64,000 bases of DNA from a virus (taxonomy: Duplodnaviria > Heunggongvirae > Uroviricota > Caudoviricetes). The stretch is from positions 125,430 to 189,429 of IMG/VR virus record IMGVR_UViG_3300029305_004950. One strand, 5' to 3'. A program made the translations under genes and the position numbers. The notes beneath the pieces were generated by a model. That model did no database searches and was not told where the DNA came from. It was given only the letters and a program-made list of their open reading frames with translations. Shown here in pieces: positions 1,788 to 63,638 of the stretch. Position 1 is the stretch's first letter. Each line of letters begins with the position of its first letter.

Positions 1788-2063
1788 ATGTCTTCAGATT
1801 TAGAATCTATTACTACAATTATGTCATTTAAATGTAATAATTGTAAAGGTGAATATATTGATATGAATTTAAAACCAGATTATGATAATTTCTATCATTG
1901 TAAAATTTGTGATACTTATTATGCAAAAACTTATACGTATAATGGTTTTTATTATGTAGCAGACTTATATGAAATTGATAAGAAAATAGTTTTTGATAGA
2001 ATGCTAACTAATAGCAATCATAAGATTATTGATTTAGAAGGGAGGAGTATTTACATTGTCTGA
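1788..2063 (+). CDS. small Cys-rich (CxxC...CxxC) zinc-ribbon-like protein
   Basis: 91-aa ORF, CNNCKG...CKIC motifs, overlaps start of next gene. Confidence 0.45.
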   Translation: MSSDLESITTIMSFKCNNCKGEYIDMNLKPDYDNFYHCKICDTYYAKTYTYNGFYYVADLYEIDKKIVFDRMLTNSNHKIIDLEGRSIYIV

Positions 2064-3405
2064 AATTACTATGGATTCTTTAACACATGATCAGCAAAGA
2101 GCTATAAAGAAAATGGTCATGTGGTGGAATCTGGTTGATAATCAACAGTATTATCGTTTAGTAGGTTATGCTGGAACAGGTAAGACTTTCATAGTCAATT
2201 TCCTTATTAAAGAGTTAGGCCTAGATCCTGTTTCACAGGTTGCATTTTGTGCTTTTACTGGTTCAGCAGCTATGAATTTAGTTAAGAAAGGTAATAAGAA
2301 TGCGACTACTATTCATCAGTTAATCTATGAAACTACAGTTGAAGAATATCCAGTTTACCATAAGAAAAAGAATAAAGAAACTGGAGTTATGGAAGATGAT
2401 TTAAGTCGTGAACCAATTAGATATGAGAAGAAATTCTATACTACTAAGAAAACTCAGCTAAATCCTTTAATCAAACTAATTGTTATAGATGAATACTCTA
2501 TGGCTAGTGATGAAATGTTAAAGGATATACTAAGTTTTGGTATTAAAGTCTTGATGATTGGAGATTCAGGTCAGCTCGAACCAGTGAATAAAGTAAATAC
2601 CTTTATGGATGAGTATGATTCTATACTAGAAGAAATTGTAAGACAACAAGGTGAAAGTCCCATTATTGATCTATCTTTTAAAGCGAGAAATAAGATAGCT
2701 ATTCCATATGGTACTTATAATGAAGATGCTGAAGTATTACCTATGTATTGTTTAGATGATATAGATGATGCTATAGAATTATATACATGGGCAGATCAGA
2801 TTCTTTGTGGTTCTAATAGAACTAGAAAGAATATAAATCGAATTGTTAGAAAACATTTAGGATTTACTGATATAATCCCTCAAGTAGGAGATAAGGTAGT
2901 TTGTACTCAGAATAATTGGAAACTATTAACATATAGTCCTAAATTAGGAACCTATATAAATCTAGTAAATGGCACTATGGGTTATGTAAACAAGATTAAA
3001 GCAGTTAGTCTAGTTTCTAAAGAATTCATCATGGATTTTAGATGTGACTTTGATCCAGAATGTGTATTTGAAGATATCAAAGTTAGTTTCTGTAATTTTG
3101 ATGAAGAAACACAACCACCCTCTCAAAGAGGTAAGTTTGACGGTAGAAGTATTACTAACATCTTTGATTTTGGTTATGCTATGACTGTTCATAAAGCACA
3201 GGGTAATGGATATGGTAAAGTTCTTGTTATAGTCGAAAAAATGTCCTTTAGACCTTTCAATATAGAAACTGAAAGACGTTGGCTGTATACTGCTATTACA
3301 AGAGCTGAAAAACAGTTGATTATGTTAATTGATGATAAATACTATCGTAGTCCTTTGTATGAAAGAGATAGAGAATTTTGGAATAGCTATGATGAATACT
3401 ACTAA
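2056..3405 (+). CDS. Dda/RecD-like SF1 DNA helicase
   Basis: TTG start with GGGAGGAG RBS. Walker A GYAGTGKTF, Walker B LIVIDEYSM, motif VI TVHKAQGNGYG; layout as in T4 Dda. Confidence 0.85.
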   Translation: MSEITMDSLTHDQQRAIKKMVMWWNLVDNQQYYRLVGYAGTGKTFIVNFLIKELGLDPVSQVAFCAFTGSAAMNLVKKGNKNATTIHQLIYETTVEEYPVYHKKKNKETGVMEDDLSREPIRYEKKFYTTKKTQLNPLIKLIVIDEYSMASDEMLKDILSFGIKVLMIGDSGQLEPVNKVNTFMDEYDSILEEIVRQQGESPIIDLSFKARNKIAIPYGTYNEDAEVLPMYCLDDIDDAIELYTWADQILCGSNRTRKNINRIVRKHLGFTDIIPQVGDKVVCTQNNWKLLTYSPKLGTYINLVNGTMGYVNKIKAVSLVSKEFIMDFRCDFDPECVFEDIKVSFCNFDEETQPPSQRGKFDGRSITNIFDFGYAMTVHKAQGNGYGKVLVIVEKMSFRPFNIETERRWLYTAITRAEKQLIMLIDDKYYRSPLYERDREFWNSYDEYY

Positions 3406-13489: not shown

Positions 13490-15019
13490 ATGGCGACTAA
13501 AAAGAATCTAACATATAACGAAGATAGTATTAAAGTCCAAGAATATCCTGATAATGTAAGATCTAATCCTACAGTCTATATCAGTAGTCTTGGTAAAGAA
13601 GGTAATACGCATCTACTAAGAGAAGTAATTGATAACTCTATTGATGAATTCCTAAATGGTTTTGGTAAAACAATTACAATTGAAATTTCCAATAAAAAAG
13701 GTGTATTTAGAGTAATTGATGAAGGTCGTGGTGTTCCTCCTAAATCTATTGAAAGAGCATTTACTACATTACATGCTTCAGGTAAATTCGATAAAGATAG
13801 TTATAGCACATCAGGTGGTCAGCATGGTCTTGGTAGTACATGTGTTAATGCACTTAGTAAGTATTTCCTTGTCATTACACATGAAGGTGGTCATGAATAC
13901 TCTCAAAGATTTGAATATGGTAAGAAAGTAACTGAACTAAAAGATTTAGGAAAGTCTGATAAGGTAGGTACTATTGTAGAGTTTTGTCCTGATGAATCTG
14001 TAATGGATACATTTGAGATTGACATTGAATCAGTCAAAGATGAATGTAAGATGAAGTCTTTTATCAATAAAGGACTTACTATCATTATTAAGGACATGGA
14101 TGAAAAGAAACAGGCTAAGTATTATCATAAAGATGGTATTGAGGAATACGTACAGTTAAATGCTAAGAAAGCTCTATTTAATCCTATTACATTCTCTACA
14201 TCAACTACTGTTAACAAGGCTAATAAAGAATTGAATGTAGAAATCGATTGTTCCTTTACTTATGATAACTCTACTGATCCTATCAATATTAAATCCTTCT
14301 GTAATTCCATTTATACTAGTGATGGCGGTACTCATGAAACTGGTTTTAAAACAGCTCTTACTAGTTTGATTAAAAAGTATATTGCTGATAATAACCTACT
14401 AACTAAAAAAGATGCAAATCTAGACATTACTGGTGATTCAGTTCAGGAAGGTGTAGTAGCAGTAGTATCTATCAAACATCCTCATCCGATGTATGATCAG
14501 CAGTCTAAGAAAAAGCTTAACTCTACAGAAGTTTCTGGTGCAGTAATGAAAGCAGTTAATGCAGAATTTAGTAAGTGGATTGAAACCCATGCTAAAGAAA
14601 TGAAAGTACTTTGTACTAAAGTAATTGAATCTGCAAAGGCTAACAGTGCTGCTAAGAGAGCTAAAGAACTAGCTAATAAGAAATCTGAAAATGGAATTAC
14701 TGCTGTTTCTGATCTATCAAAATTAGCTAACTGTATTTCTAAGAAACCTGAAGAATGTGAACTGTTTGTAGTTGAGGGTAATTCTGCAAGTTCAAGTGCT
14801 AGAAATGGTAGAGATAAGCAAACTCAGGCTGTTTATGCTCTAAGAGGTAAGATTCTCAATACTAACAATCTAGCTGAAACTAAGATTTTTGAAAATAAGG
14901 AACTATCAGATTTGATTTATATCTTAACTGGTAAGAAAACTGCAATTGGTAAGAATTTCAATGTTGAAGACATGAAGTATCATAAACTGGTAGCCTTGAC
15001 TGATGCTGACGATGACGGT
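13490..15019 (+). CDS. gyrB: type II topoisomerase ATPase subunit (GyrB/ParE-like), exon 1
   Basis: GHKL ATPase motifs EVIDNSIDE, GRGVP, GGQHGLGS; Toprim EGNSASSS and DADDDG. The reading frame hits a stop two codons after the conserved DADxDG motif; the downstream ORF supplies the rest (HIASLILGF...PPLY). Confidence 0.88.
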
Positions 15020-16310
15020 AAATGACACATTAAGTCTGCATCAGTGAGAAATTTTCTAACAATACATTAGTATTAATGTTAGGAGGTTTCATTCAAATGA
15101 AAAATGAAAAAGAAACTAAAGAAAGATATGCTTCTGGTATTGAAAATTGTAAAAAACAAGCTCAAAATCTTAAACAAAAAGCATCTGAAAAATTTTTAAG
15201 TAAAGTTTACGAACAAGTTGGTGATGATTATACTTTTCTGGAAACTTATGTAACGAGTAAAACTAAACTCTGGGTAATACATAATGTTTGTGGACATAAG
15301 TATAGAGTAACTCCAAATGAGTTTACTTCTCATAAAAGACGTTGTCCAAACTGTGCAAATAAAAAAAGAGTACTTAATACTGGAATAAAACCTCATACAT
15401 TAGAATCTATTATTGAAAGTGTAAAAGAATTATCTAATGACGAATATGAGGTAGTTAGTAATGAGTATGAAAATAATAAAGAAAAAATTTGGGTTAGACA
15501 TAAAACATGTAGTTATTCATACCTTGTTCGTTATAATGACTTTCAGCAAGGATATAGATGTCCTTTATGTGCTGACATGAATAAAAGTCAGAATAATTCT
15601 AAACCAATACAGGATATTAAAAGTGTTCTAGATTTTAATAAAATTGAGTATGAATCAGAAGTGTCATTTGAAGAATGTGTAGACAAACGTTTTCTTCCAT
15701 TTGATATATTGGTTTATACTGATAAAGTCAATGATGAATACTTTTTAATTGAGTATGATGGACAACAACATTCTGATCCTAATGCACAATTTGGAGGAAC
15801 TAAAGAAGAAAGACTTATTAGATTTGAGCTAACTCAAAAACATGACACTATAAAAAATGCTTTTTGTGAAGAAAACAGTATAAAACTTTATAGAATTTCT
15901 TATAAAGAAGATTTGATGAGCAAACTAAGAAGTATATTGGAAGAAAATAATCTAATTTGACTTGCAGTGAATGCCGTCTAAAAACCTAGTTAACTGCGGG
16001 AAACTATCAATAAACACTATTTACTAAACTAAGATAGTAATATACTTAGTGGCAATGGGTAACTCCAAAGATATAGTAAAAAGAATAGTGTTTGATACAA
16101 TCGACGCAACGAAGTATCCTACATTTAGTAAAAGATAGGATATGAGTTCAACGACTATCGAAACCAACTAACTTAATGTTAGTAATAAGGTAAGTTGAAA
16201 TACTTACACGAAGGGAGTAGAGTAGGGAAATGTAAATTACAAAGTACCGAAAAGCTAGGCTATACTAATTTAGTATAGAAAATATAGTCTAAATTATGCA
16301 AAGTAATTTG
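15020..16310 (+). mobile_element. group I self-splicing intron with homing-endonuclease ORF in the P1 loop
   Basis: Internal guide GCCGTC (15973-15978) complements the exon-1 end GACGGU with a terminal U-G pair. P-like element AACTGCGGGAAAC (~15992), R element GTTCAACGACTA (16146-16157), S element AAAATATAGTCT (~16279). The intron ends in G (16310), giving an in-frame join DADDDG|LHIASLILGF. Confidence 0.75.
15097..15960 (+). CDS. intron-encoded homing endonuclease candidate: two Zn-ribbon-like modules plus a PD-(D/E)xK (Vsr/DUF559-like) nuclease domain
   Basis: ATG at 15097 with TAGGAGG RBS. Duplicated W..H..C..Y.V....F....RCP.CA modules; C-terminal RFLPFDILVY...LIEYDGQQH resembles the restriction-endonuclease-like fold core. 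Confidence 0.55.
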   Translation: MKNEKETKERYASGIENCKKQAQNLKQKASEKFLSKVYEQVGDDYTFLETYVTSKTKLWVIHNVCGHKYRVTPNEFTSHKRRCPNCANKKRVLNTGIKPHTLESIIESVKELSNDEYEVVSNEYENNKEKIWVRHKTCSYSYLVRYNDFQQGYRCPLCADMNKSQNNSKPIQDIKSVLDFNKIEYESEVSFEECVDKRFLPFDILVYTDKVNDEYFLIEYDGQQHSDPNAQFGGTKEERLIRFELTQKHDTIKNAFCEENSIKLYRISYKEDLMSKLRSILEENNLI

Positions 16311-17135
16311 CTTCACATTGCAAGCCTTATCTTAGGATTTGTATATAGACATGCTAAACCCATTTTGGAAAAAGGTTACATGTATATTGCAATGCCTCCT
16401 CTTTATTCTATCATTGAAAGAAATAAGAAACGTTATTTCTTAAATCAAGAGGAATATGATGCATATATTGAGGAAAAGATTTTTGAAAACTATGTATTTA
16501 GTTGTAATGAGATAGGTTTAAATAAGACTAAAGCTAAAACCATTCTTAAGAATTTTGAAACTTACAAAAACAAAGTAAGTGAACTATCTACTAGTACAGG
16601 TATCAATATGTATTTAATTGATGATGTATGTGATTATTTACGTACTAATGAAAATGCAACAAGTAAGGATATTGTGAATTTATTAAAACAGATTGGTGAT
16701 TTTGAATTCTTTAAGAATGATGAAGGAAATTCTGAGATTAATGGTCTTTATGATAATAGCTTTGTAAATGCAGTAATTAAGGATTTAGTAAAGTCTGCTA
16801 AAAAAGCTAAGAAGATTCTAGAAGATCTTAGTATTCCTGAAGAAGTATTCATCAATGATTATCATCTATCAATTAAGAACTATCAAGACATGTATAACAA
16901 GGTTACACCTAAGTCCAGAAGTCGATTCAAAGGCTTGGGAGAAATGGATGCTAATGAACTTTGGGAAACTACTCTTGATCCTTCAGTTAGAAACATTATG
17001 CAAGTTGTACTATCAGATGAAGAAAAGACAGATGATACTATGGATACACTACTAAATTCTAATAGTAAGTATGCAGACAAACGTAAAGTATTCTTAATGA
17101 AAAATCAGCAAAAGATTAAGGAATTAGAAATCTAA
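16311..17135 (+). CDS. gyrB: type II topoisomerase subunit B, exon 2 (C-terminal)
   Basis: HIASLILGFVYRH...YMYIAMPPLY... matches the GyrB region following DADVDG(S)HI; the KGLGEMDANELWETTLDP block matches the GyrB C-terminus. Confidence 0.85.
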   Translation, partial: LHIASLILGFVYRHAKPILEKGYMYIAMPPLYSIIERNKKRYFLNQEEYDAYIEEKIFENYVFSCNEIGLNKTKAKTILKNFETYKNKVSELSTSTGINMYLIDDVCDYLRTNENATSKDIVNLLKQIGDFEFFKNDEGNSEINGLYDNSFVNAVIKDLVKSAKKAKKILEDLSIPEEVFINDYHLSIKNYQDMYNKVTPKSRSRFKGLGEMDANELWETTLDPSVRNIMQVVLSDEEKTDDTMDTLLNSNSKYADKRKVFLMKNQQKIKELEI

Positions 17136-47979: not shown

Positions 47980-48312
47980 TTGACAATTCAAGAAAAAAGA
48001 AAAAAGATAGAAACTATGATTATCAATACTATGAACTTAATGGATAAGACTGGTAGTAACGGAAACAAGTATAAAGTCTTTTTTAAATCTATGAATGATG
48101 ATCAATTTTCTAAATGGGCAAAAAATTTCTTAAAAGATGATGAGGAAAATTTTTATATGGAAATCTTACCATATAAAAATGAACCAAAGCTAAAAGATTT
48201 AATTGAAGCTGGAGAATACCTAGATGTTCCATTAGATGAGTATATATACTATCGTGATAATGGAAATATGGATAATCCAATTAGAAGTAAGTATAAAGTA
48301 CCAGTTGGGTAA
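47980..48312 (+). CDS. hypothetical protein; possible 5' exon of an intron-split gene
   Basis: TTG start with AAAGGAGG RBS. Stop lies about 35 nt before a group I intron P element. Confidence 0.45.
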   Translation: MTIQEKRKKIETMIINTMNLMDKTGSNGNKYKVFFKSMNDDQFSKWAKNFLKDDEENFYMEILPYKNEPKLKDLIEAGEYLDVPLDEYIYYRDNGNMDNPIRSKYKVPVG

Positions 48313-48752
48313 AAGAATTCATTATATGCTCAACTTATAAATTTTCTTTAAATGCTGGAAATACTCATTTAGTAAAGAGTTAATCAGCAGCTAAAAAATT
48401 AAATGAATTTTTGTTTATATATTTTAATTACGTTCCCAACTCCATGAGATCGTAAAAGTATTCTAAAAACCCTGAGAATACTAATGAGTATAGTTTTAAG
48501 GCTGGTCTATACTCATCCCTCCTTTCCAAAAGTATATAATCAAAAAATCATTTTTGAAGAAGTCTTTACAGGTGACTTCTTTTTTTTTAGTTCAACGACT
48601 ATTTTTGTAGGATTTAAATGAATCTGAAATAAGAAAACTATCTTATATGATAGAAGATATAGTCTAAACTTTATTGAAATATAAAGATTAGTGTAGATTA
48701 ATGGACTACACACTTGAAATAATGATATAATGATACGCAAACTCCAACAGAT
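48313..48752 (+). mobile_element. group I intron core (P/Q/R/S) between two same-frame ORFs, boundaries approximate
   Basis: P AAATGCTGGAAAT 48350-48362, Q AATCAGCAGC 48382-48391, R GTTCAACGACTA 48590-48601, S AAGATATAGTCT 48654-48665, followed by P9-type hairpins. Confidence 0.55.
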
Positions 48753-49167
48753 GTTGATGAAAAAGAACTCTTATAGCCTATCAATAGATTCTCGTAATCT
48801 ACGTACAAATCAGCTTTCTGGCGATGACAAAGTAGCTAGATTAACTGAAGCGGAGAACTTTGCATCCTCAATTTGGGGAATCGAGGATGGATTAAAAGAG
48901 ATGATGGGTCCAAGAGCTGATGATAGTGTAGCTAAAACACAGCTATATAAACAAATAGCACAACAGGGTTATTGTTCTCTAAATGATATAGAAAATGATC
49001 CAGCTAATAAATACACTCTTAATACAGTTGATGTATTTATGATAGGCGCTGGATTAATGTCAGACTTAGTAACTGATGGCTTAGAATTGCGTAGAACTGA
49101 AGATGCTAGAAAACGTAGAACTTCTACATCTGAAAGAATCTCTGATAAAACTGAACGAAAAGATTAA
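48730..49167 (+). CDS. hypothetical protein; possible 3' exon (Arg/Asp-rich, composition differs from neighbours)
   Basis: 145-aa ORF in the same frame as 47980..48312, beginning inside or at the 3' end of the intron core. Confidence 0.4.
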   Translation: MIRKLQQMLMKKNSYSLSIDSRNLRTNQLSGDDKVARLTEAENFASSIWGIEDGLKEMMGPRADDSVAKTQLYKQIAQQGYCSLNDIENDPANKYTLNTVDVFMIGAGLMSDLVTDGLELRRTEDARKRRTSTSERISDKTERKD

Positions 49168-58410: not shown

Positions 58411-58586
58411 TTTAATTCTCCTTTGTAGTAATAAAATACTAGTAAACTCAATCTATGTTCACTATAGTTAAAATATATGTATATAAAGTGTAAAAATACG
58501 AATTTTTTCATAAAAAACAATAGAAAACTATAAATTACTAATCATTAAACTTGATTAATTTTTATAAAGGAAGGAAAATAAGAATT

Positions 58587-59180
58587 ATGGGTTTATTAAA
58601 AGCACAGTTTAACAAGGCTATTGATAATGGTAAGTTAGGTAAAAAAGTAGAATATATTCCTTTTTATCGTACGGGTATTGATATTTTTGACTATATTAAT
58701 GGTGTAAGAAAAGCAGATGGTACTATGGACTTAGGTATCCAAGGCGGTAGAATCATGATGGATATTGGTCAGTCTGGTACTGGTAAGACTTCTAAGATTA
58801 TTCAGCAGGCATGTTATATCGCCGATCAGTTTGAAGAAGCAGACGTATGGCATTATGATTATGAAAGATCTACTAGTAAGGAACGTGTTATGGCTCTAAC
58901 TGGTTGGTCTTCTGATCATTATGATGAAAAGTATCAAATTTTCCAAGAGAATATTTCTGTAGAAACTCTATTTAGAGCTTGTAAAGAAATTGAAAAGATT
59001 AAGATGGAAAATAAAGAAGCTATTCAGATTGATACTGGTAGAAAAGATGGCAGTGGTAAACCTGTTTACATCTTACCTCCTACAATTATGATTGTAGACT
59101 CCGTCGCTATGTTAGCTCCTGAAGATGTCGAGGATGATGATGAACTAAAGGGATCAATGGGTAAACTTGCAATTGCATAA
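58587..59180 (+). CDS. uvsX: UvsX/RecA-like recombinase, exon 1 (3' end approximate)
   Basis: ATG at 58587 with AAGGAAGGA RBS. Walker A GQSGTGKTS. IMIVDSVAMLAPE matches RecA/UvsX VIDSLGNL / VVDSVAAL. The frame stops at 59180 inside the conserved core, about 25 nt before an intron P element. Confidence 0.8.
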   Translation: MGLLKAQFNKAIDNGKLGKKVEYIPFYRTGIDIFDYINGVRKADGTMDLGIQGGRIMMDIGQSGTGKTSKIIQQACYIADQFEEADVWHYDYERSTSKERVMALTGWSSDHYDEKYQIFQENISVETLFRACKEIEKIKMENKEAIQIDTGRKDGSGKPVYILPPTIMIVDSVAMLAPEDVEDDDELKGSMGKLAIA

Positions 59181-60196
59181 TGTGCTCATTTAAAACTCAC
59201 TTAATTGCTGGAAAAACTAATTTAGAAAATCAGCAGCTTATAAACAGTTGAAAAAATTATTGCACTAATTTTCGCACCCAAAATCTAACATATAATTAAA
59301 TTCTATATGTTAGGAGTTGTAAAAATGAAAATAGATTTTCAAAGTTTTATGGTTGGATGTTGTTTAGGTGATTCTAGTTTTGAATTTAGAGCTAGAACAG
59401 ATACATTTGATAGAATTTCATTTGGACATAAGATAGAGAATAAAGATTATGTTGATTTAAAGAAAAATATTTTATCTGAAAATAACATAGAGTTTTCAGA
59501 ATTAAAAGGATTAAGTATGACTAATATCTGTCGTTTTAGAATTTCTTATTCAAAATATAGTGAGTTAATTGAAACTTATTATGAATTAACTAGAAATAAT
59601 GATAGAAGTAGAAAACTTCCATCAATTGAGTATATTACTCCAACTACTCTTTTCTTTTGGTTTTTAGATGATGGTTATACTACAGCTAGAAATTGTAAAA
59701 ATAAGAGTTCTAAAATTTCTGGTTATGTTAGAACTGAAATAGGAATTGCTTTAAAGAGCTATGCTGACGAGGATATTATGAACTTAACACCTCAAATCAA
59801 TGAAAAATTTGGTTTAAATTTTACTTATAAGTATGATTACTATAATGGTACTAAAAAGATTAAAGATATTATCCTTTCAAAAAAGAAAGACCAATATAAG
59901 TTTTTGGATCTTATGTATCAATTTAAAGAAATTTTACCTGTAAGTATGGAATATAAATTCTGTCTTTGTGAAATACCTAAACGAAATGGAATTAGTGTAG
60001 ATACAAGATACAATATGTGTGATGTACATGAAACTGGATTTTGTACATGTAGAGAAAAAGATTTCTCTAATTGTTTATAAGTTCAACGACTATGTCATTG
60101 CAAGTGCAATGTGAATATTGAGTACTGGAAACAGTAAAGATATAGTCTAATCTAAGTAGTAATACTTAGAAGAAGAACTAACAATTCTTCAAATAA
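59181..60196 (+). mobile_element. group I intron 1 in the recombinase gene, carrying a LAGLIDADG homing endonuclease gene in a peripheral loop (boundaries approximate)
   Basis: P AATTGCTGGAAAA 59203-59215, Q AATCAGCAGC 59227-59236, then the ORF, then R GTTCAACGACTA 60081-60092 directly after the ORF stop, and S AAGATATAGTCT 60137-60148. Confidence 0.75.
59325..60080 (+). CDS. LAGLIDADG-family homing endonuclease (double-motif)
   Basis: ATG at 59325 with TAGGAG RBS. Motif 1 FMVGCCLGDSSF, motif 2 LFFWFLDDGYTT. Confidence 0.65.
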   Translation: MKIDFQSFMVGCCLGDSSFEFRARTDTFDRISFGHKIENKDYVDLKKNILSENNIEFSELKGLSMTNICRFRISYSKYSELIETYYELTRNNDRSRKLPSIEYITPTTLFFWFLDDGYTTARNCKNKSSKISGYVRTEIGIALKSYADEDIMNLTPQINEKFGLNFTYKYDYYNGTKKIKDIILSKKKDQYKFLDLMYQFKEILPVSMEYKFCLCEIPKRNGISVDTRYNMCDVHETGFCTCREKDFSNCL

Positions 60197-60328
60197 AAGC
60201 TGGCAACAGCAATTGCAAAGGCAAATACTAACGTTTTTAAGCGTATTATGTCTCCTATGCAGAATGCTAACATTATTCTAATGCTAGTTAATCATATTAC
60301 ACAGAAAATTGATAGATTTTTGTCAATG
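60197..60328 (+). CDS. uvsX: UvsX/RecA-like recombinase, internal micro-exon
   Basis: Open frame KLATAIAKANTNVFKRIMSPMQNANIILMLVNHITQKIDRFLSM. It aligns with RecA [26 protein letters not shown] and T4 UvsX CIAINHTYETQEMFSKTVM. Bounded upstream by intron-1 S and downstream by the intron-2 P element. Confidence 0.55.
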
Positions 60329-60758
60329 TAAAATCTTAAGAATTGCTGGAAAAATCGATAAGATAAATCAGCATCCCTTATATTAAGGGTTCAACGACTA
60401 TATACTATAGAAATCTATAGTTAGTATAAGACTTAGAAGATATAGTCTGAACTTCTATGAAAATAGAAGACTTAAGTACGATTAATGAACGTACTAATAA
60501 TACAATTGATTAATCCGATGGCTCGAACCAAGGCTCAGATAAACTATCTTAAGCAGGATGAGTCAATTCCAGGTAAACTATTTACTGCCTGATGTATATT
60601 CTTAAATGCTGGAAAATTTATAAAACAATCAGCATCTAGTATTTTATACTAGTTCAACGACTAATTTTACTTTTCAAATGAAAAGGAAATGGAATCTTTG
60701 AAGATATAGTCTCAACTTCTATGGAAACATAGAGAAATTTGTAGCTTAATAAACTACA
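60329..60758 (+). mobile_element. two tandem minimal group I intron cores (introns 2 and 3) in the recombinase gene
   Basis: Core A: P 60341-60353, Q 60365-60374, R 60389-60400, S 60437-60448. Core B: P 60604-60616, Q 60627-60636, R 60652-60663, S 60701-60712. Each has P6/P8/P9-type hairpins. An in-frame stop at 60750 forces the 3' splice site to between 60753 and about 60775. Confidence 0.6.
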
Positions 60759-61379
60759 ATGAAGAAATGTAAAAAATTGGGTAAAGCAGTTTCTTACCTA
60801 ACTAATACACTAACTAAACTAGAAACAGGCTCTAAGCTAGAAACTGATAAGGAATTTGGTATTAAGGGTTTCTATCTATCTGGTATTCTAGTTAAGTCTC
60901 GTTCTACTGAAGCTGGTGTATCCTTTAAGATGGTATTTGAACAGAAGAAGGGTGTTAATAACCTACTAACAAACTTTGCTAATCTTAAGGATCTAGGTCG
61001 TATCACTGGTGCAGGTCGTAGCTTTAAACTAGATACTTGTCCTGATGTTAAGTTCTCTATTAAGGAATTCCAGAATAAGTACTATGAATCTGCAGAACTT
61101 AGAAAAGCTTTTGATGCAGCAGTTCATGAAGAATATTCTAAGTTCCTACCTGAAGCTGGTGTTGCACCTAGTCAGTCTATTGATATGAATAAGCTAGATG
61201 AACTAATTGAAGATGATGTTAAGTCTGCAGGTAAGAAATCTAGTAAGACAACTAAAACTACTAAAGCAACTACTTATGAACTAGTAGATGAAGAAAATGG
61301 TGTTTACCAAGGTACAGATGGTAAGTACTATATCATCGAGAATGGTGAATATGTAGAAGTAGAATATGAAGAAGAATAA
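60759..61379 (+). CDS. uvsX: UvsX/RecA-like recombinase, 3' exon
   Basis: GKAVSYLTNTL...GFYLSGILVKSRSTEAGVSFKMVF aligns with T4 UvsX GPMYSADTVF...GYQFVLNVEKSRTVKEKSKFFIDV and RecA GNALKFYASVRLDIRR; acidic C-terminal tail as in UvsX. Confidence 0.75.
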   Translation: MKKCKKLGKAVSYLTNTLTKLETGSKLETDKEFGIKGFYLSGILVKSRSTEAGVSFKMVFEQKKGVNNLLTNFANLKDLGRITGAGRSFKLDTCPDVKFSIKEFQNKYYESAELRKAFDAAVHEEYSKFLPEAGVAPSQSIDMNKLDELIEDDVKSAGKKSSKTTKTTKATTYELVDEENGVYQGTDGKYYIIENGEYVEVEYEEE

Positions 61380-61389
61380 ATAAAACAAA

Positions 61390-61428
61390 GGAGATAGAGA
61401 ATGTTAAATCTCTATCTCCTTTTCATCT
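61390..61428 (+). terminator. rho-independent terminator
   Basis: AGGAGATAGAGA-loop-CTCTATCTCCT plus T's. Confidence 0.55.
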
Positions 61429-61480: not shown

Positions 61481-61846
61481 ATGATTTGTCCAAATTGTGA
61501 AAAAGAAATGAAAGATAAGTCATATTGGTATTATGGTATTAGTGATTGGGATATGGATTATCCTGCTACATTACATGAAGAACATTATTGTAAAGATTGT
61601 AGAATTACTTTTGTTAATGGAAAATGGAAAATTCCTAAGAAATTTGAAAGACCTACTGAAAAGCAAATTAGAACTGTTCTCTTTATAAATTCAAAATTAG
61701 GTACTAATCTTACACCACTTTTAAAAAGACAGTGTTGGAAGTTTATTTCTAAACATTTTGAAGAAGCTAAACTACAAGCTAAATATGACAGAGAAGAGTA
61801 TTTTGAATGGCACAGAGAAATGTATGGTGAATTTGAATACTACTAA
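61481..61846 (+). CDS. zinc-ribbon protein (CPNCEK...CKDC), paralog of 62420..62839
   Basis: Shared P-T-E-K-Q ... K-R-Q ... K-F-I-S block with ORF 62420. Confidence 0.5.
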   Translation: MICPNCEKEMKDKSYWYYGISDWDMDYPATLHEEHYCKDCRITFVNGKWKIPKKFERPTEKQIRTVLFINSKLGTNLTPLLKRQCWKFISKHFEEAKLQAKYDREEYFEWHREMYGEFEYY

Positions 61847-61865
61847 TGGGAGATATACCAGAATT

Positions 61866-62177
61866 ATGAGTAATAACCTTAAAGACTATGTAGTAATTCT
61901 TTGTAGAGAATATGACAAATATCAAGGAAGAGAACCTATAGTTTATAAACTTGATATAAAACAAGAAGACATGACAAATATTCTATTACATTCTCTAAAT
62001 TTGAGATCCAGATATAATCCTGAATTGGCATATTTCCTAGTTTTAAAGGAAAATTGGGAAGAGAACAAAGAAGATATAACTAATAAGATTTTCAGAGAAT
62101 ATGAATTTGAAATGTTTGATAGTTTTATAGGCAATGGTTCTAATGTATTAGAAAATAATGGTATTGTAAGAATTTAA
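61866..62177 (+). CDS. hypothetical protein
   Basis: ATG at 61866 just after the upstream stop; the track start at 61758 would overlap the previous gene by 88 nt. Confidence 0.45.
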   Translation: MSNNLKDYVVILCREYDKYQGREPIVYKLDIKQEDMTNILLHSLNLRSRYNPELAYFLVLKENWEENKEDITNKIFREYEFEMFDSFIGNGSNVLENNGIVRI

Positions 62178-62205
62178 TAGAGAGAATTTATGAGGATAAT
62201 TGACT

Positions 62206-62412
62206 ATGCCAAAAATTATATTTGAAGGTATTGAAATTCCAAAAAATTGTAATGAATGTGAACATATAGGACACTATGAAAATGGACTATTTTCTCGTAA
62301 TCCACATTGTTGTTGTGAATTGATTTGGCAATTAAAACATGAAGATTATAAAGTTGATAAAAATTCTTTAGATGAAAATTGTCCATTAAAAATTGGATAT
62401 ATAGAACTTTAA
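62206..62412 (+). CDS. small Cys-rich protein
   Basis: ATG at 62206 with GAGGA RBS; CNECEH...CCC motifs. Confidence 0.45.
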   Translation: MPKIIFEGIEIPKNCNECEHIGHYENGLFSRNPHCCCELIWQLKHEDYKVDKNSLDENCPLKIGYIEL

Positions 62413-62419
62413 AAGTATT

Positions 62420-62839
62420 ATGAAATGTATAGAATGTAAAAAGCATATGAAACTAGTAAATGTAGAAAACTTCTACATTTCAGATACTAGTGAAGCTACA
62501 TCTTCTATAAATGAGTATGATTGTCCTAATTGTGGTATTAAGATTTTCATGAACATGAGTATTTCTAATTATGGTATAGAAAAATTGTATATACCAGATT
62601 TACTAAAACCAACTGAAAAACAATTAGAATTTGCTGAGTATCTTTGTAGTATAATGCCAGAATTAAGGTATTCTAGATCAAAGTGTTATACTAAAAGACA
62701 GTTAAGTAAATTCATATCTGAAAATAAGGAAGAAGTATTTAGATTTAAAAAAGAAGAACAAGAAAAAGCTAGTAGTAAAGTAAGTAAATCTATAGCTACT
62801 AGAAGAAGTATAAAGAAAAGGAGTAATACAGATGAGTGA
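62420..62839 (+). CDS. zinc-ribbon protein (CIECKK...CPNCG), paralog of 61481..61846
   Basis: 139 aa, basic C-terminus. Confidence 0.5.
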   Translation: MKCIECKKHMKLVNVENFYISDTSEATSSINEYDCPNCGIKIFMNMSISNYGIEKLYIPDLLKPTEKQLEFAEYLCSIMPELRYSRSKCYTKRQLSKFISENKEEVFRFKKEEQEKASSKVSKSIATRRSIKKRSNTDE

Positions 62840-63284
62840 CAAGAAAGAACTATTAGTTAAAACTGATGTGATTACTTGTATCGATGAAGTTTGGACTCCT
62901 CATAATTGGGGACTTAAAGAAAGACTTAATAATCTGCCTACAACTACTATTGATGGTAATACTTCAGATGGTTATCATACTTTTAATGAACTTTACCATC
63001 ATAGAGCTATGCTTTTTAAGACTATTTGTGAAACTTATTATCAATATGCTTGGAAGTCAATGCAACATGATGATCCTGAAAGTAATCCTATGTATGATGG
63101 AATGTTTATCGTAGGAATTGAAACTCCAGAAGGTCAAGCTACTTATCATTATGATGTTGATCCTTATTGGGATTTATTTAATGTTAGAGAAATCGCAAGA
63201 GCACCTGAATGGGATGGTCATACTCCAGAAGAAGCATTAGAAAGAATTCAAAGTCTTACTAAATATAAAACTTCCATTTACTAA
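62832..63284 (+). CDS. hypothetical protein
   Basis: 150 aa, AAGGAG RBS, overlaps upstream stop. Confidence 0.5.
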   Translation: MSDKKELLVKTDVITCIDEVWTPHNWGLKERLNNLPTTTIDGNTSDGYHTFNELYHHRAMLFKTICETYYQYAWKSMQHDDPESNPMYDGMFIVGIETPEGQATYHYDVDPYWDLFNVREIARAPEWDGHTPEEALERIQSLTKYKTSIY

Positions 63285-63305
63285 AATATAGGAGTTGAAT
63301 TATAA

Positions 63306-63638
63306 ATGGCTAGAATGGTAAAGAAAGATAAAGTAATTGAAAAGAAAACTTTAGTTTTAAAAAATGAAGGATATATTGATAATCTAGATGATTTTAGTGC
63401 TATTCTAATCTGTGCTGTTAGATATTGCCTTGGTAGAATGACTTATATGCCAAAACTAGTAACATCATTTATTAAAAGAAATTTAAAAGATTTCATTACT
63501 GATAACGATATTACTGTTATGATTCAAGATATTCAGAGTTGTAACAATTATGGACATTCTTGTGATGAAGAAACATGGATGGATTTTCTATATTGGTTGA
63601 AAGAAGTTAAAAAAGAAAGAGATGATATTATTAAATGA
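63306..63638 (+). CDS. hypothetical protein
   Basis: 110 aa, TAGGAG RBS. Confidence 0.5.
   Translation: MARMVKKDKVIEKKTLVLKNEGYIDNLDDFSAILICAVRYCLGRMTYMPKLVTSFIKRNLKDFITDNDITVMIQDIQSCNNYGHSCDEETWMDFLYWLKEVKKERDDIIK

Follow-up and report, generated by a model that had tools for sequence, protein, structure and literature searches.

In phage T4, group I introns of subgroup IA2 interrupt the DNA-metabolism genes td, nrdB and nrdD. They have a hairpin (P7.1/P7.2) between the paired elements P7 and P3', an endonuclease open reading frame (ORF) that is looped out of the core, and they home by double-strand-break repair. The frame of the upstream exon stops early within the intron, which prevents ribosomes from entering the ribozyme core. 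Twort, a large Firmicute-type myovirus, carries small introns of the phage IA type in orf142. [quoted passage not shown] Here we analyzed a stretch of 64,000 nucleotides (nt) from an uncultured AR9/PBS1-like jumbo phage (IMG/VR record IMGVR_UViG_3300029305_004950, positions 125,430 to 189,429; referred to as the window), in which a UvsX/RecA-type recombinase gene is divided into four exons by three group I introns.

The gene resembles Twort orf142 in that three group I introns are crowded into a short stretch of one protein gene, leaving short internal exons. Unlike in orf142, the interrupted gene is a RecA/UvsX-type recombinase, one intron carries a LAGLIDADG gene and two introns lack P8; furthermore, splicing was shown for Twort whereas here it is inferred from the sequence. 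The T4 introns share with this locus the location in a DNA-metabolism gene, the hairpin between P7 and P3', the early stop and, for intron 1, the looped-out ORF. In T4, however, there is one intron per gene, the enzymes are of the GIY-YIG or HNH type and the cores are complete with P2 and P8.

RecA-family genes with a group I intron have been described in Twort-like Staphylococcus phages, in which the Rec gene has one endonuclease-bearing intron (I-MsaII; PMC5618024), and in recA of Bacillus anthracis/cereus and of phage 0305phi8-36 (PMC2504315). For these genes the full-length protein after splicing was inferred or detected (PMC5618024, PMC2504315). The present locus is of the same kind, a RecA-family gene with a group I intron and sometimes an endonuclease gene, but those genes have one intron each compared to three here, and the gene of the window belongs to the AR9-type UvsX-like family (phrog_97). 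The split in phage fRuSau02 leaves a Rec.1 of 74 amino acids (aa) and therefore lies near the N-terminus (PMC5618024), whereas the sites found here are at the DNA-binding loops L1 and L2.

Jumbo phages related to AR9/PBS1 and MarsHill have many multi-intron genes, the content of which varies between relatives (10.1101/2020.12.14.422802). The coding sequence (CDS) of MarsHill gp248 (MW248466) is joined from 4 pieces and adjoins the UvsX gene; AR9 g078 (KU878088) consists of 3 pieces. The disrupted genes reported for these phages do not include UvsX (10.1101/2020.12.14.422802). The gene order of the window is shared with the AR9/MarsHill lineage; the non-virion RNA polymerase beta gene comes two to six genes downstream of UvsX. 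In contrast to the window, the closest cultured relatives (AR9, PBS1, MarsHill, LPJP1 and others) encode their recombinase in one uninterrupted piece. Among the cases found, this is the first AR9-type UvsX gene with introns and the first recombinase gene with three. A previous sequence-only reading of the window had spoken of an extreme intron load. The three introns are real but this wording goes too far, since other phage genes such as Twort orf142 and the four-piece CDS of MarsHill carry comparable loads. The locus is thus a crowded but familiar type of phage gene, and what may lie beyond the known are its compact ribozymes without P8.

By comparison with an uninterrupted orthologue, region 58587-61379 (+ strand) is a single UvsX/RecA-type recombinase gene of four exons and three group I introns, in agreement with the sequence-only reading. 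The orthologue is located on an IMG/VR contig of 299 kb (L010) and shares 83% amino-acid and about 80% nucleotide identity. Exon and intron limits were set by blastn against L010 together with the group I rules (U before the 5' splice site, G at the intron end, pairing of P1 and P10). In blastn, four segments of the window were collinear with one unbroken stretch of L010:

window 58468-59162, L010 3855-4576
window 60203-60314, L010 4577-4688
window 60509-60574, L010 4688-4753
window 60780-61422, L010 4754-5418

The junctions given by the group I rules are, to the nucleotide, the points at which L010 runs on. The gene is therefore laid out as follows:

58587-59162, + strand: exon 1, 192 codons, encodes the N-terminal portion including the motifs Walker A (GQSGTGKT) and Walker B (IMIVDS), last residues GSMG (GGU)
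59163-60202, + strand: intron 1, group I, 1040 nt
60203-60313, + strand: exon 2, 37 codons, ATAIAK...NHITQKID, corresponding to the RecA segment between L1 and L2 (profile alignment with E. coli RecA)
60314-60508, + strand: intron 2, group I, 195 nt, without ORF
60509-60574, + strand: exon 3, 22 codons, 66 nt, INPMARTKAQINYLKQDESIPG, corresponding to the L2 DNA-binding loop in the RecA alignment
60575-60779, + strand: intron 3, group I, 205 nt, without ORF
60780-61379, + strand: exon 4, 199 codons and stop, GKAVSYL... to the end of the C-terminal domain, phrog_97, L010 from 4754

Exon 1 matched the UvsX-like family phrog_97 (E 5e-22), and its alignment to L010 stopped exactly at 59162. Its start ATG at 58587 is preceded by GGAAGGAAAA. 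The joined sequence of exons 1 and 2 is GGATCAATGGGTGCAACAGCAATTGC. An alternative junction of intron 1 at 59168/60203 (...GSMGKL/ATAI) was rejected since homologues lack the residues KL and L010 is continuous at 59162/60203.

All three introns are in phase 0 and the internal exons measure 111 and 66 nt, so that an exon-skipped mRNA would keep the frame. In all three introns a frame that runs on from the exon meets a stop exactly five codons past the junction (KLAIA* 59163-59180, RFLSM* 60314-60331 and KLFTA* 60575-60592). No terminator-like site was found on the + strand within the unit. Past the stop codon there is a strong hairpin with a T-run at 61387-61426. The ORFs of the region are:

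58551-59180, + strand: ORF with first ATG at 58587, matching the N-terminal part of phrog_97 'UvsX-like recombinase'
59307-60080, + strand: ORF of the LAGLIDADG_2 endonuclease
60759-61379, + strand: ORF matching the C-terminal part of phrog_97, its ATG at 60759 inside P9.1 of intron 3

The ORF limits used in the sequence-only reading (58551-59180, a 44-codon frame at 60197-60328, and 60759-61379) are correct, but mapping on L010 shows that they are not the exon limits. Likewise, the missing conserved segments that it had placed in the 44-codon frame and in 60759-61379 are contained there as exons 2 and 4; the exon 3 of 66 nt, however, had been given no coordinates. The four core elements that it quoted were each found three times, in order, in the gaps between the coding pieces: TGCTGGAAA at 59206, 60344 and 60607, each copy followed by AATCAGCA; TCAACGACTA at 60083, 60391 and 60654; and AGATATAGTC at 60138, 60438 and 60702. 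The exact 10-mers have just 4-5 copies across the 64-kb window, and the additional copies mark two further introns.

An assembly artefact is excluded because the three-intron locus recurs on eight contigs from at least eight samples. The compared contigs are at least 99.87% identical (0-2 mismatches), and the longest record comprises 320 kb. In public assemblies the gene callers list the recombinase gene as three unrelated hypothetical proteins.

Group I introns are almost certainly present at these three junctions. Each begins with a P1 helix containing a U.G pair at the 5' splice site (AUGGGU/GCUCAU, UUGAU/GUCAA and CAGGU/GCCUG in introns 1, 2 and 3, respectively) and ends with a terminal G (omega-G; 60202, 60508 and 60779) right before the first base shared with L010. 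P3, P4, P6, P7 and P9 could be assigned in all three; the helices of intron 1 were read from the sequence:

Intron 1, + strand: P1 59157-59162/59184-59189; P3 59195-59199/60119-60123 (ACUCA/UGAGU); P4 59206-59211/59230-59235
Intron 1, continued: P6 59237-59246/60072-60081 (10 base pairs (bp), encloses the ORF); P7 60088-60092/60143-60147; P7.1-like hairpin 60096-60111
Intron 1, continued: P8 60124-60135 (ACUG-GAAA-CAGU); P9 60152-60169; P9.1 60172-60190
Intron 2, + strand: P1 60309-60313/60322-60326; P3 60334-60338/60427-60431; P4 60344-60349/60368-60373; P5 60354-60364; P6 60375-60389
Intron 2, continued: P7 60396-60400/60443-60447; P7.1-like hairpin 60405-60420; CUUAG linker 60432-60436 in the place of P8; P9 60452-60469; P9.1 60475-60495
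Intron 3, + strand: P1 60570-60574/60587-60591; P10 60581-60586 (UUUACU)/exon 4 60780-60785 (GGUAAA), 6 bp; P3 60598-60602/60691-60695
Intron 3, continued: P4 60607-60612/60629-60634; P6 60636-60652; P7 60659-60663/60707-60711; P7.1-like hairpin 60670-60685
Intron 3, continued: CUUUG linker 60696-60700 in the place of P8; P9 60717-60734; P9.1 60739-60759

A scan of 2.1 kb with the Rfam model RF00028 (gathering score 50 bits) gave a full-model match in each of the three gaps, with scores of 43.3, 33.3 and 33.2 bits and E between 3e-9 and 4e-6. Over the whole window no match was obtained, neither at gathering nor at E<=0.01, which is a filter effect and not evidence of absence. Intron 3 had the highest score (43.3 bits, E 3e-9), intron 2 reached 33.2 bits and the match of intron 1 spans 60020-60169. 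A covariance model of compact phage introns (R1, see below) matched intron 2 with 128 bits, intron 3 with 129.5 bits and intron 1 in both halves. The minimum free energy fold of intron 2 recovered P4/P5, P6, P7, P7.1, P9 and P9.1 (z = -4.2); a computed fold was also obtained for intron 3.

The conceptual spliced product comprises 450 aa and is collinear with AR9 gp086 (47% identity) and the homologues of MarsHill and LPJP1. No gap was found across any of the three junctions in the alignment to these recombinases, and no frameshift or stop codon occurs within any exon. Conceptual splicing, by which the sequence-only reading had proposed to judge its own claim, thus restores a continuous protein with a predicted RecA fold.

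The spliced protein matched phrog_97 'UvsX-like recombinase' over residues 4-445 (E 7e-41) but reached only 18.4 bits with Pfam RecA PF00154 (cut-off 27), which indicates a divergent UvsX-like clade and not a canonical RecA. A profile built from the product and 34 homologues (35 in total) matched RecA (1e-8, single chains), phage UvsX 7z3m (1.8e-12) and 3io5 (1.9e-5). In the AlphaFold (AF2) model the mean predicted local distance difference test (pLDDT) score was 85.5, and internal blocks of low confidence occurred solely at the two DNA-binding loops. The top Foldseek matches of this model were RecA filaments (RecA 7jy6_A, E 1e-19, template modelling (TM) score 0.80 normalised to the target), with an identity to RecA structures of just 15-17%.

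According to the RecA alignment, site 1 is at the end of L1, site 2 at the start of L2, and site 3 between two glycines after L2. Conservation of the protein is highest in these segments, which are typical homing targets.

Comparison with L010 indicates strong purifying selection on the exons. The ratio of non-synonymous to synonymous substitution rates (dN/dS) was 0.083, 0.013, 0 and 0.133 for exons 1, 2, 3 and 4, respectively, with synonymous sites being near-saturated. Exon 2 showed 2 non-synonymous and 16 synonymous differences, with a single amino acid changed, and exon 3 none and 11. Exons 2 and 3 have no start codon and are nevertheless constrained, which is understandable only with in-frame joining.

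The most probable reading, to which we assign a probability of roughly 85%, is that the three introns are spliced in vivo and a functional recombinase is produced. One pre-mRNA of about 2.8 kb would be transcribed, 52% of which is intron. The introns would leave by the standard two-step, guanosine-initiated transesterification: the internal guide sequence would form P1 with the last 5-6 exon bases, placing a U.G wobble at the cleavage site, and the terminal G would then enter the G-site in P7 for exon ligation, where the 6-bp P10 of intron 3 would align the 3' exon. The stop five codons into each intron would release ribosomes ahead of the catalytic core.

Several points weigh against this. 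The RF00028 scores of all three introns are below the gathering score; this can be attributed to the lack of P2 and P8, the very small P5 and, in intron 1, the 0.8-kb ORF insert. In introns 2 and 3 the absence of P2 and P8 and the minimal P5 mean that autonomous catalysis is not guaranteed. The signal of purifying selection could largely predate the insertion of the introns, and the near-identity of the intron-bearing copies of this strain gives no view of constraint on introns 2 and 3 after insertion. In addition, the exact spliced protein was not among 15 billion proteins and the spliced-junction 26-mers/28-mers were not in the metagenome contigs of the Joint Genome Institute (JGI); both collections consist mostly of DNA data, however, and these negatives are therefore uninformative.

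Introns 2 and 3 have reduced cores, in which neither P2 nor P8 is present and P5 has 2-3 bp. Merely CUUAG (intron 2) or CUUUG (intron 3) separates P3' from the invariant AAGAUAUAGUC of the J8/7 joining segment, while intron 1 has a P8. The alignable cores of about 140 nt are 72% identical between the two introns. A canonical P8 for introns 2 and 3, formed either by the post-P7 hairpin or by UUCAAA with UUUGAA, was rejected, because it would require a J8/7 of 15-21 nt or consume conserved J8/7 bases. These folds also leave P3 without a complement, whereas the adopted P3 covaries in eight introns.

Further compact introns were collected by pattern scans of IMG/VR, and seven of these were used to build R1. 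The model found introns 2 and 3, both halves of intron 1 and two other introns of the window. In an alignment of eight members (A5), 96.7% of the cells were paired compared to 78.9% in shuffles, and 17 of the 34 pairs had changed on both sides. Such double changes affected 4 of 6 pairs in P3, 6 of 6 in the post-P7 hairpin, 3 of 5 in P6 and 4 of 6 in P9, with P4 and P7 being invariant. When the partners were slid by 1-3 columns, pairing dropped to 26-45%. The P3 variants of the compact introns include AUUCU/GGAAU, UCUUA/UAAGA, CUUUUU/AAAAAG, AUUCUU/AAGAAU, UUUUCU/AGAAAA, UAUGGU/GCCAUA, UCUUUC/GGAAGA and ACUCUU/GAGAGU, and 3-6 nt always come next. The introns without P8 on IMG/VR contigs are mostly devoid of ORFs. 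A normal P8 is present at the corresponding position in the larger site-3 introns of two orthologous loci (L013 and L015) and in the window intron at about 48.3-48.7 kb.

The same join occurs in AR9, which has been cultured. Its g078 encodes a virion RNA polymerase subunit, the annotated CDS consists of three pieces, and intron 2 encloses the VSR-type homing endonuclease g079. In this intron (L225 = KU878088.1 62753-67796, locus 2490-2525) P3 is UUUCCU/AGGAAA, followed by CUUAG and AAGAUAUAGUCU; the join of P3', CUUAG and J8/7 is thus identical to that of intron 2 of the window. The gene g078 is annotated as spliced and the mature mRNAs of AR9 are cited as experimentally determined (10.1101/2020.12.14.422802), which argues that the reduced design is functional.

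A first alternative is that the introns are spliced, but introns 2 and 3 need a protein cofactor, either the LAGLIDADG protein of intron 1 acting as maturase or an RNA chaperone of phage or host, to replace the peripheral and P8 contacts. The missing P2 and P8 of both introns would fit a cofactor, as would the LAGLIDADG protein, which is under purifying selection and encoded 0.2-0.5 kb upstream on the same transcript. LAGLIDADG maturases of group I introns are moreover established in fungal mitochondria. The bI3 maturase is named in PMC2813881. However, another orthologous locus (L222) has an intron without P8 and no LAGLIDADG gene in the 4.7 kb available, and the P8-less introns in IMG/VR contigs mostly have no ORF at all. 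In addition, the group I introns of bacteria and phages characterised to date generally self-splice in vitro, so that we regard a need for a cofactor as unlikely.

Alternatively, introns 2 and/or 3 could be decayed ribozymes that no longer splice, the recombinase being a recently inactivated pseudogene in a phage that relies on other recombination functions. The absent P8, the minimal P5, the sub-threshold Rfam scores and the absence of the spliced sequence from the protein collection and the JGI contigs would all fit such decay, and proof that phages of this group require UvsX is lacking. On the other hand, at least eight independent introns share the P8-less design and show compensatory changes in P3, P6, P7.1 and P9, pointing to selection on the RNA fold, and the design is present also in the AR9 virion RNA polymerase gene annotated as spliced. 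As the strands of the catalytic core (P4, P7 and J8/7) are all intact, together with the U.G pair and the terminal G, and the exons are free of frameshifts and stop codons, we consider decay very improbable.

That the pieces are separate genes of a recombinase assembled from several polypeptides (compare split RNA polymerase subunits), or the interruptions inteins, can practically be dismissed: split RNA polymerase genes and inteins are known in this phage group, and the ORFs 58587-59180 and 60759-61379 each possess a start codon and appear as separate gene calls in public assemblies, but ATG 60759 falls in P9.1 of intron 3, exons 2 and 3 lack a start codon and a ribosome binding site (RBS) yet are strongly constrained (dN/dS near 0), the interruptions contain stop codons in all frames and group I cores, and the orthologues are single polypeptides.

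If the introns are spliced as preferred here, introns 2 and 3 might represent a natural class of minimal group I ribozymes that has gone unrecognised and is catalytically competent and common in jumbo phages including AR9, a suggestion that we regard as tentative and rather doubtful. Such a class may be characterised by the absence of P2, replacement of P8 by a turn of 3-6 nt (GAAA, GUAA, CUUAG, CUUUG...), a retained 6-bp hairpin between P7 and P3', and a core of about 150 nt from P3 to P9. No description of P8-less or 'smallest' group I introns was found in the literature searched, the coverage of which was incomplete, so that novelty of the class is not established.

Even shorter group I-like cores of 125-140 nt from P3 to P9 were noticed in IMG/VR jumbo-phage contigs (L066:3546-3671, L148:2707-2834, L183:365-503 and L064:1035-1172). 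Here P3' follows P7 after 3-4 nt and J8/7 follows P3' after 3-4 nt, with neither P7.1 hairpin nor P8, and several copies are present per contig.

Intron 1 contains the homing endonuclease that the sequence-only reading had assigned to one of the introns:

59325-60080, + strand: gene of a LAGLIDADG homing endonuclease (251 aa), located within P6 of intron 1, RBS AGGAG at 59312-59316, stop codon in the 3' strand of P6

The assignment holds, with Pfam PF03161 (LAGLIDADG_2) reaching 52.2 bits against a cut-off of 25 (E 9e-14) and a match to phrog_11023; the gene callers take 59325 as start. Two LAGLIDADG motifs with the catalytic acidic residues, FMVGCCLGDSS at residue 8 (residues 8-17) and LFFWFLDDGYT at residue 107 (residues 107-117), indicate the monomeric type.

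An orthologous locus (L221) carries intron 1 with its endonuclease gene at the identical site. The endonucleases are identical in 232 of 251 residues (dN/dS 0.105), and the 5' non-coding part of the intron is identical at 151 of 162 positions (93%), compared to an exon dS of 0.47. L222 has one small intron located one codon (3 nt) upstream of site 3 (P1 GAUCCCU/GGGGAUC), and L010 is intron-less; all three loci come from one sample. Among 68 homologue clusters of the recombinase, about a dozen proteins stop at or near query residue 251. Four of these loci were fetched (L011, L013, L015 and L016), and each contains a group I intron, 0.3-1.0 kb long, at precisely site 3. By these comparisons site 3 is a recurrent target, site 1 is common to two lineages and site 2 is seen in this window only.

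In L016 (3637-6859, Logan ERR14657339_2262), a distant orthologue, a LAGLIDADG_3 intein of about 350 aa was observed in Walker A (GKSGSGK/.../T), and the site-3 group I intron of about 1 kb encodes a DUF723 protein.

Intron 1 would be a mobile element. Its LAGLIDADG endonuclease, if active, would cleave alleles that lack the intron, as in L010, and double-strand-break repair would copy the intron into the cut allele. The candidate cleavage target of the L010 type is GGCTCGATGGGT/GCTACTGCAATCGC, identical to the joined exons of the window at 37 of 48 positions. Co-conversion with intron 1 is the most likely route by which introns 2 and 3 spread, or these two introns may persist by vertical descent. 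Their distances to the cleavage site of intron 1, 111 and 177 coding nt, would be within the ordinary range of co-conversion. A co-conversion signature, i.e. a local dip or peak of identity to L010 around the sites, was looked for and no clear pattern was found.

In total, five or more group I introns are present in the 64-kb window. One of them, of about 415 nt at roughly 48313-48727, splits a piece of an RNA polymerase beta subunit (47980-49167, phrog_3233) and has P1 GUUGGGU/GCUCAAC and a normal P8 (CUAUC/GAUAG); Rfam gave partial matches only and R1 39.6 bits. The gene of the topoisomerase II large subunit (13490-17135) is split as well, into ORFs 13490-15025 (phrog_543, E 2e-105) and 16296-17135 (phrog_543, C-terminal) about 1.27 kb apart. 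The gap contains an HNH endonuclease ORF (15076-15960, phrog_559, E 1.5e-53), located upstream of P4 and not in P6, and the group I core elements TGCGGGAAA at 15995, TCAACGACTA at 16148 and AAATATAGTC at 16280. It had no Rfam match even in a short scan. A further R1 match at 2163-2282 (minus strand, 23.4 bits, E 0.012), antisense in ORF 2056-3405, lacks the J8/7-P7 strand and is probably due to chance.

Downstream of the recombinase gene (61481-63638) small ORFs with CxxC pairs (e.g. 61481-61846, 62200-62412 and 62420-62839) and a WDGH-domain ORF (62832-63284) were found. In L004 the non-virion RNA polymerase beta gene is located just past the window end, and the order of UvsX and RNA polymerase beta is that of AR9, MarsHill and LPJP1. 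In a near-identity search of 50,697 phage records only intron-core matches of 36-50 nt were obtained, the phage itself not being in the collection.

The recombinase gene clearly illustrates how selfish introns accumulate where the codons of an essential-type gene are most conserved, here at the L1 and L2 loops. Related phages carry natural alleles with no, one or three introns, which makes the locus a convenient system for homing and for the co-conversion of ORF-less introns that neighbour an endonuclease-bearing one. With respect to annotation, gene callers and Rfam thresholds miss such loci. If exon skipping occurs as in Twort orf142, it would give in-frame recombinase variants without the L2 loop. 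[quoted passage not shown] The P8-less introns, if active, would define a natural group I core smaller than the textbook one and attractive for structural and engineering work.

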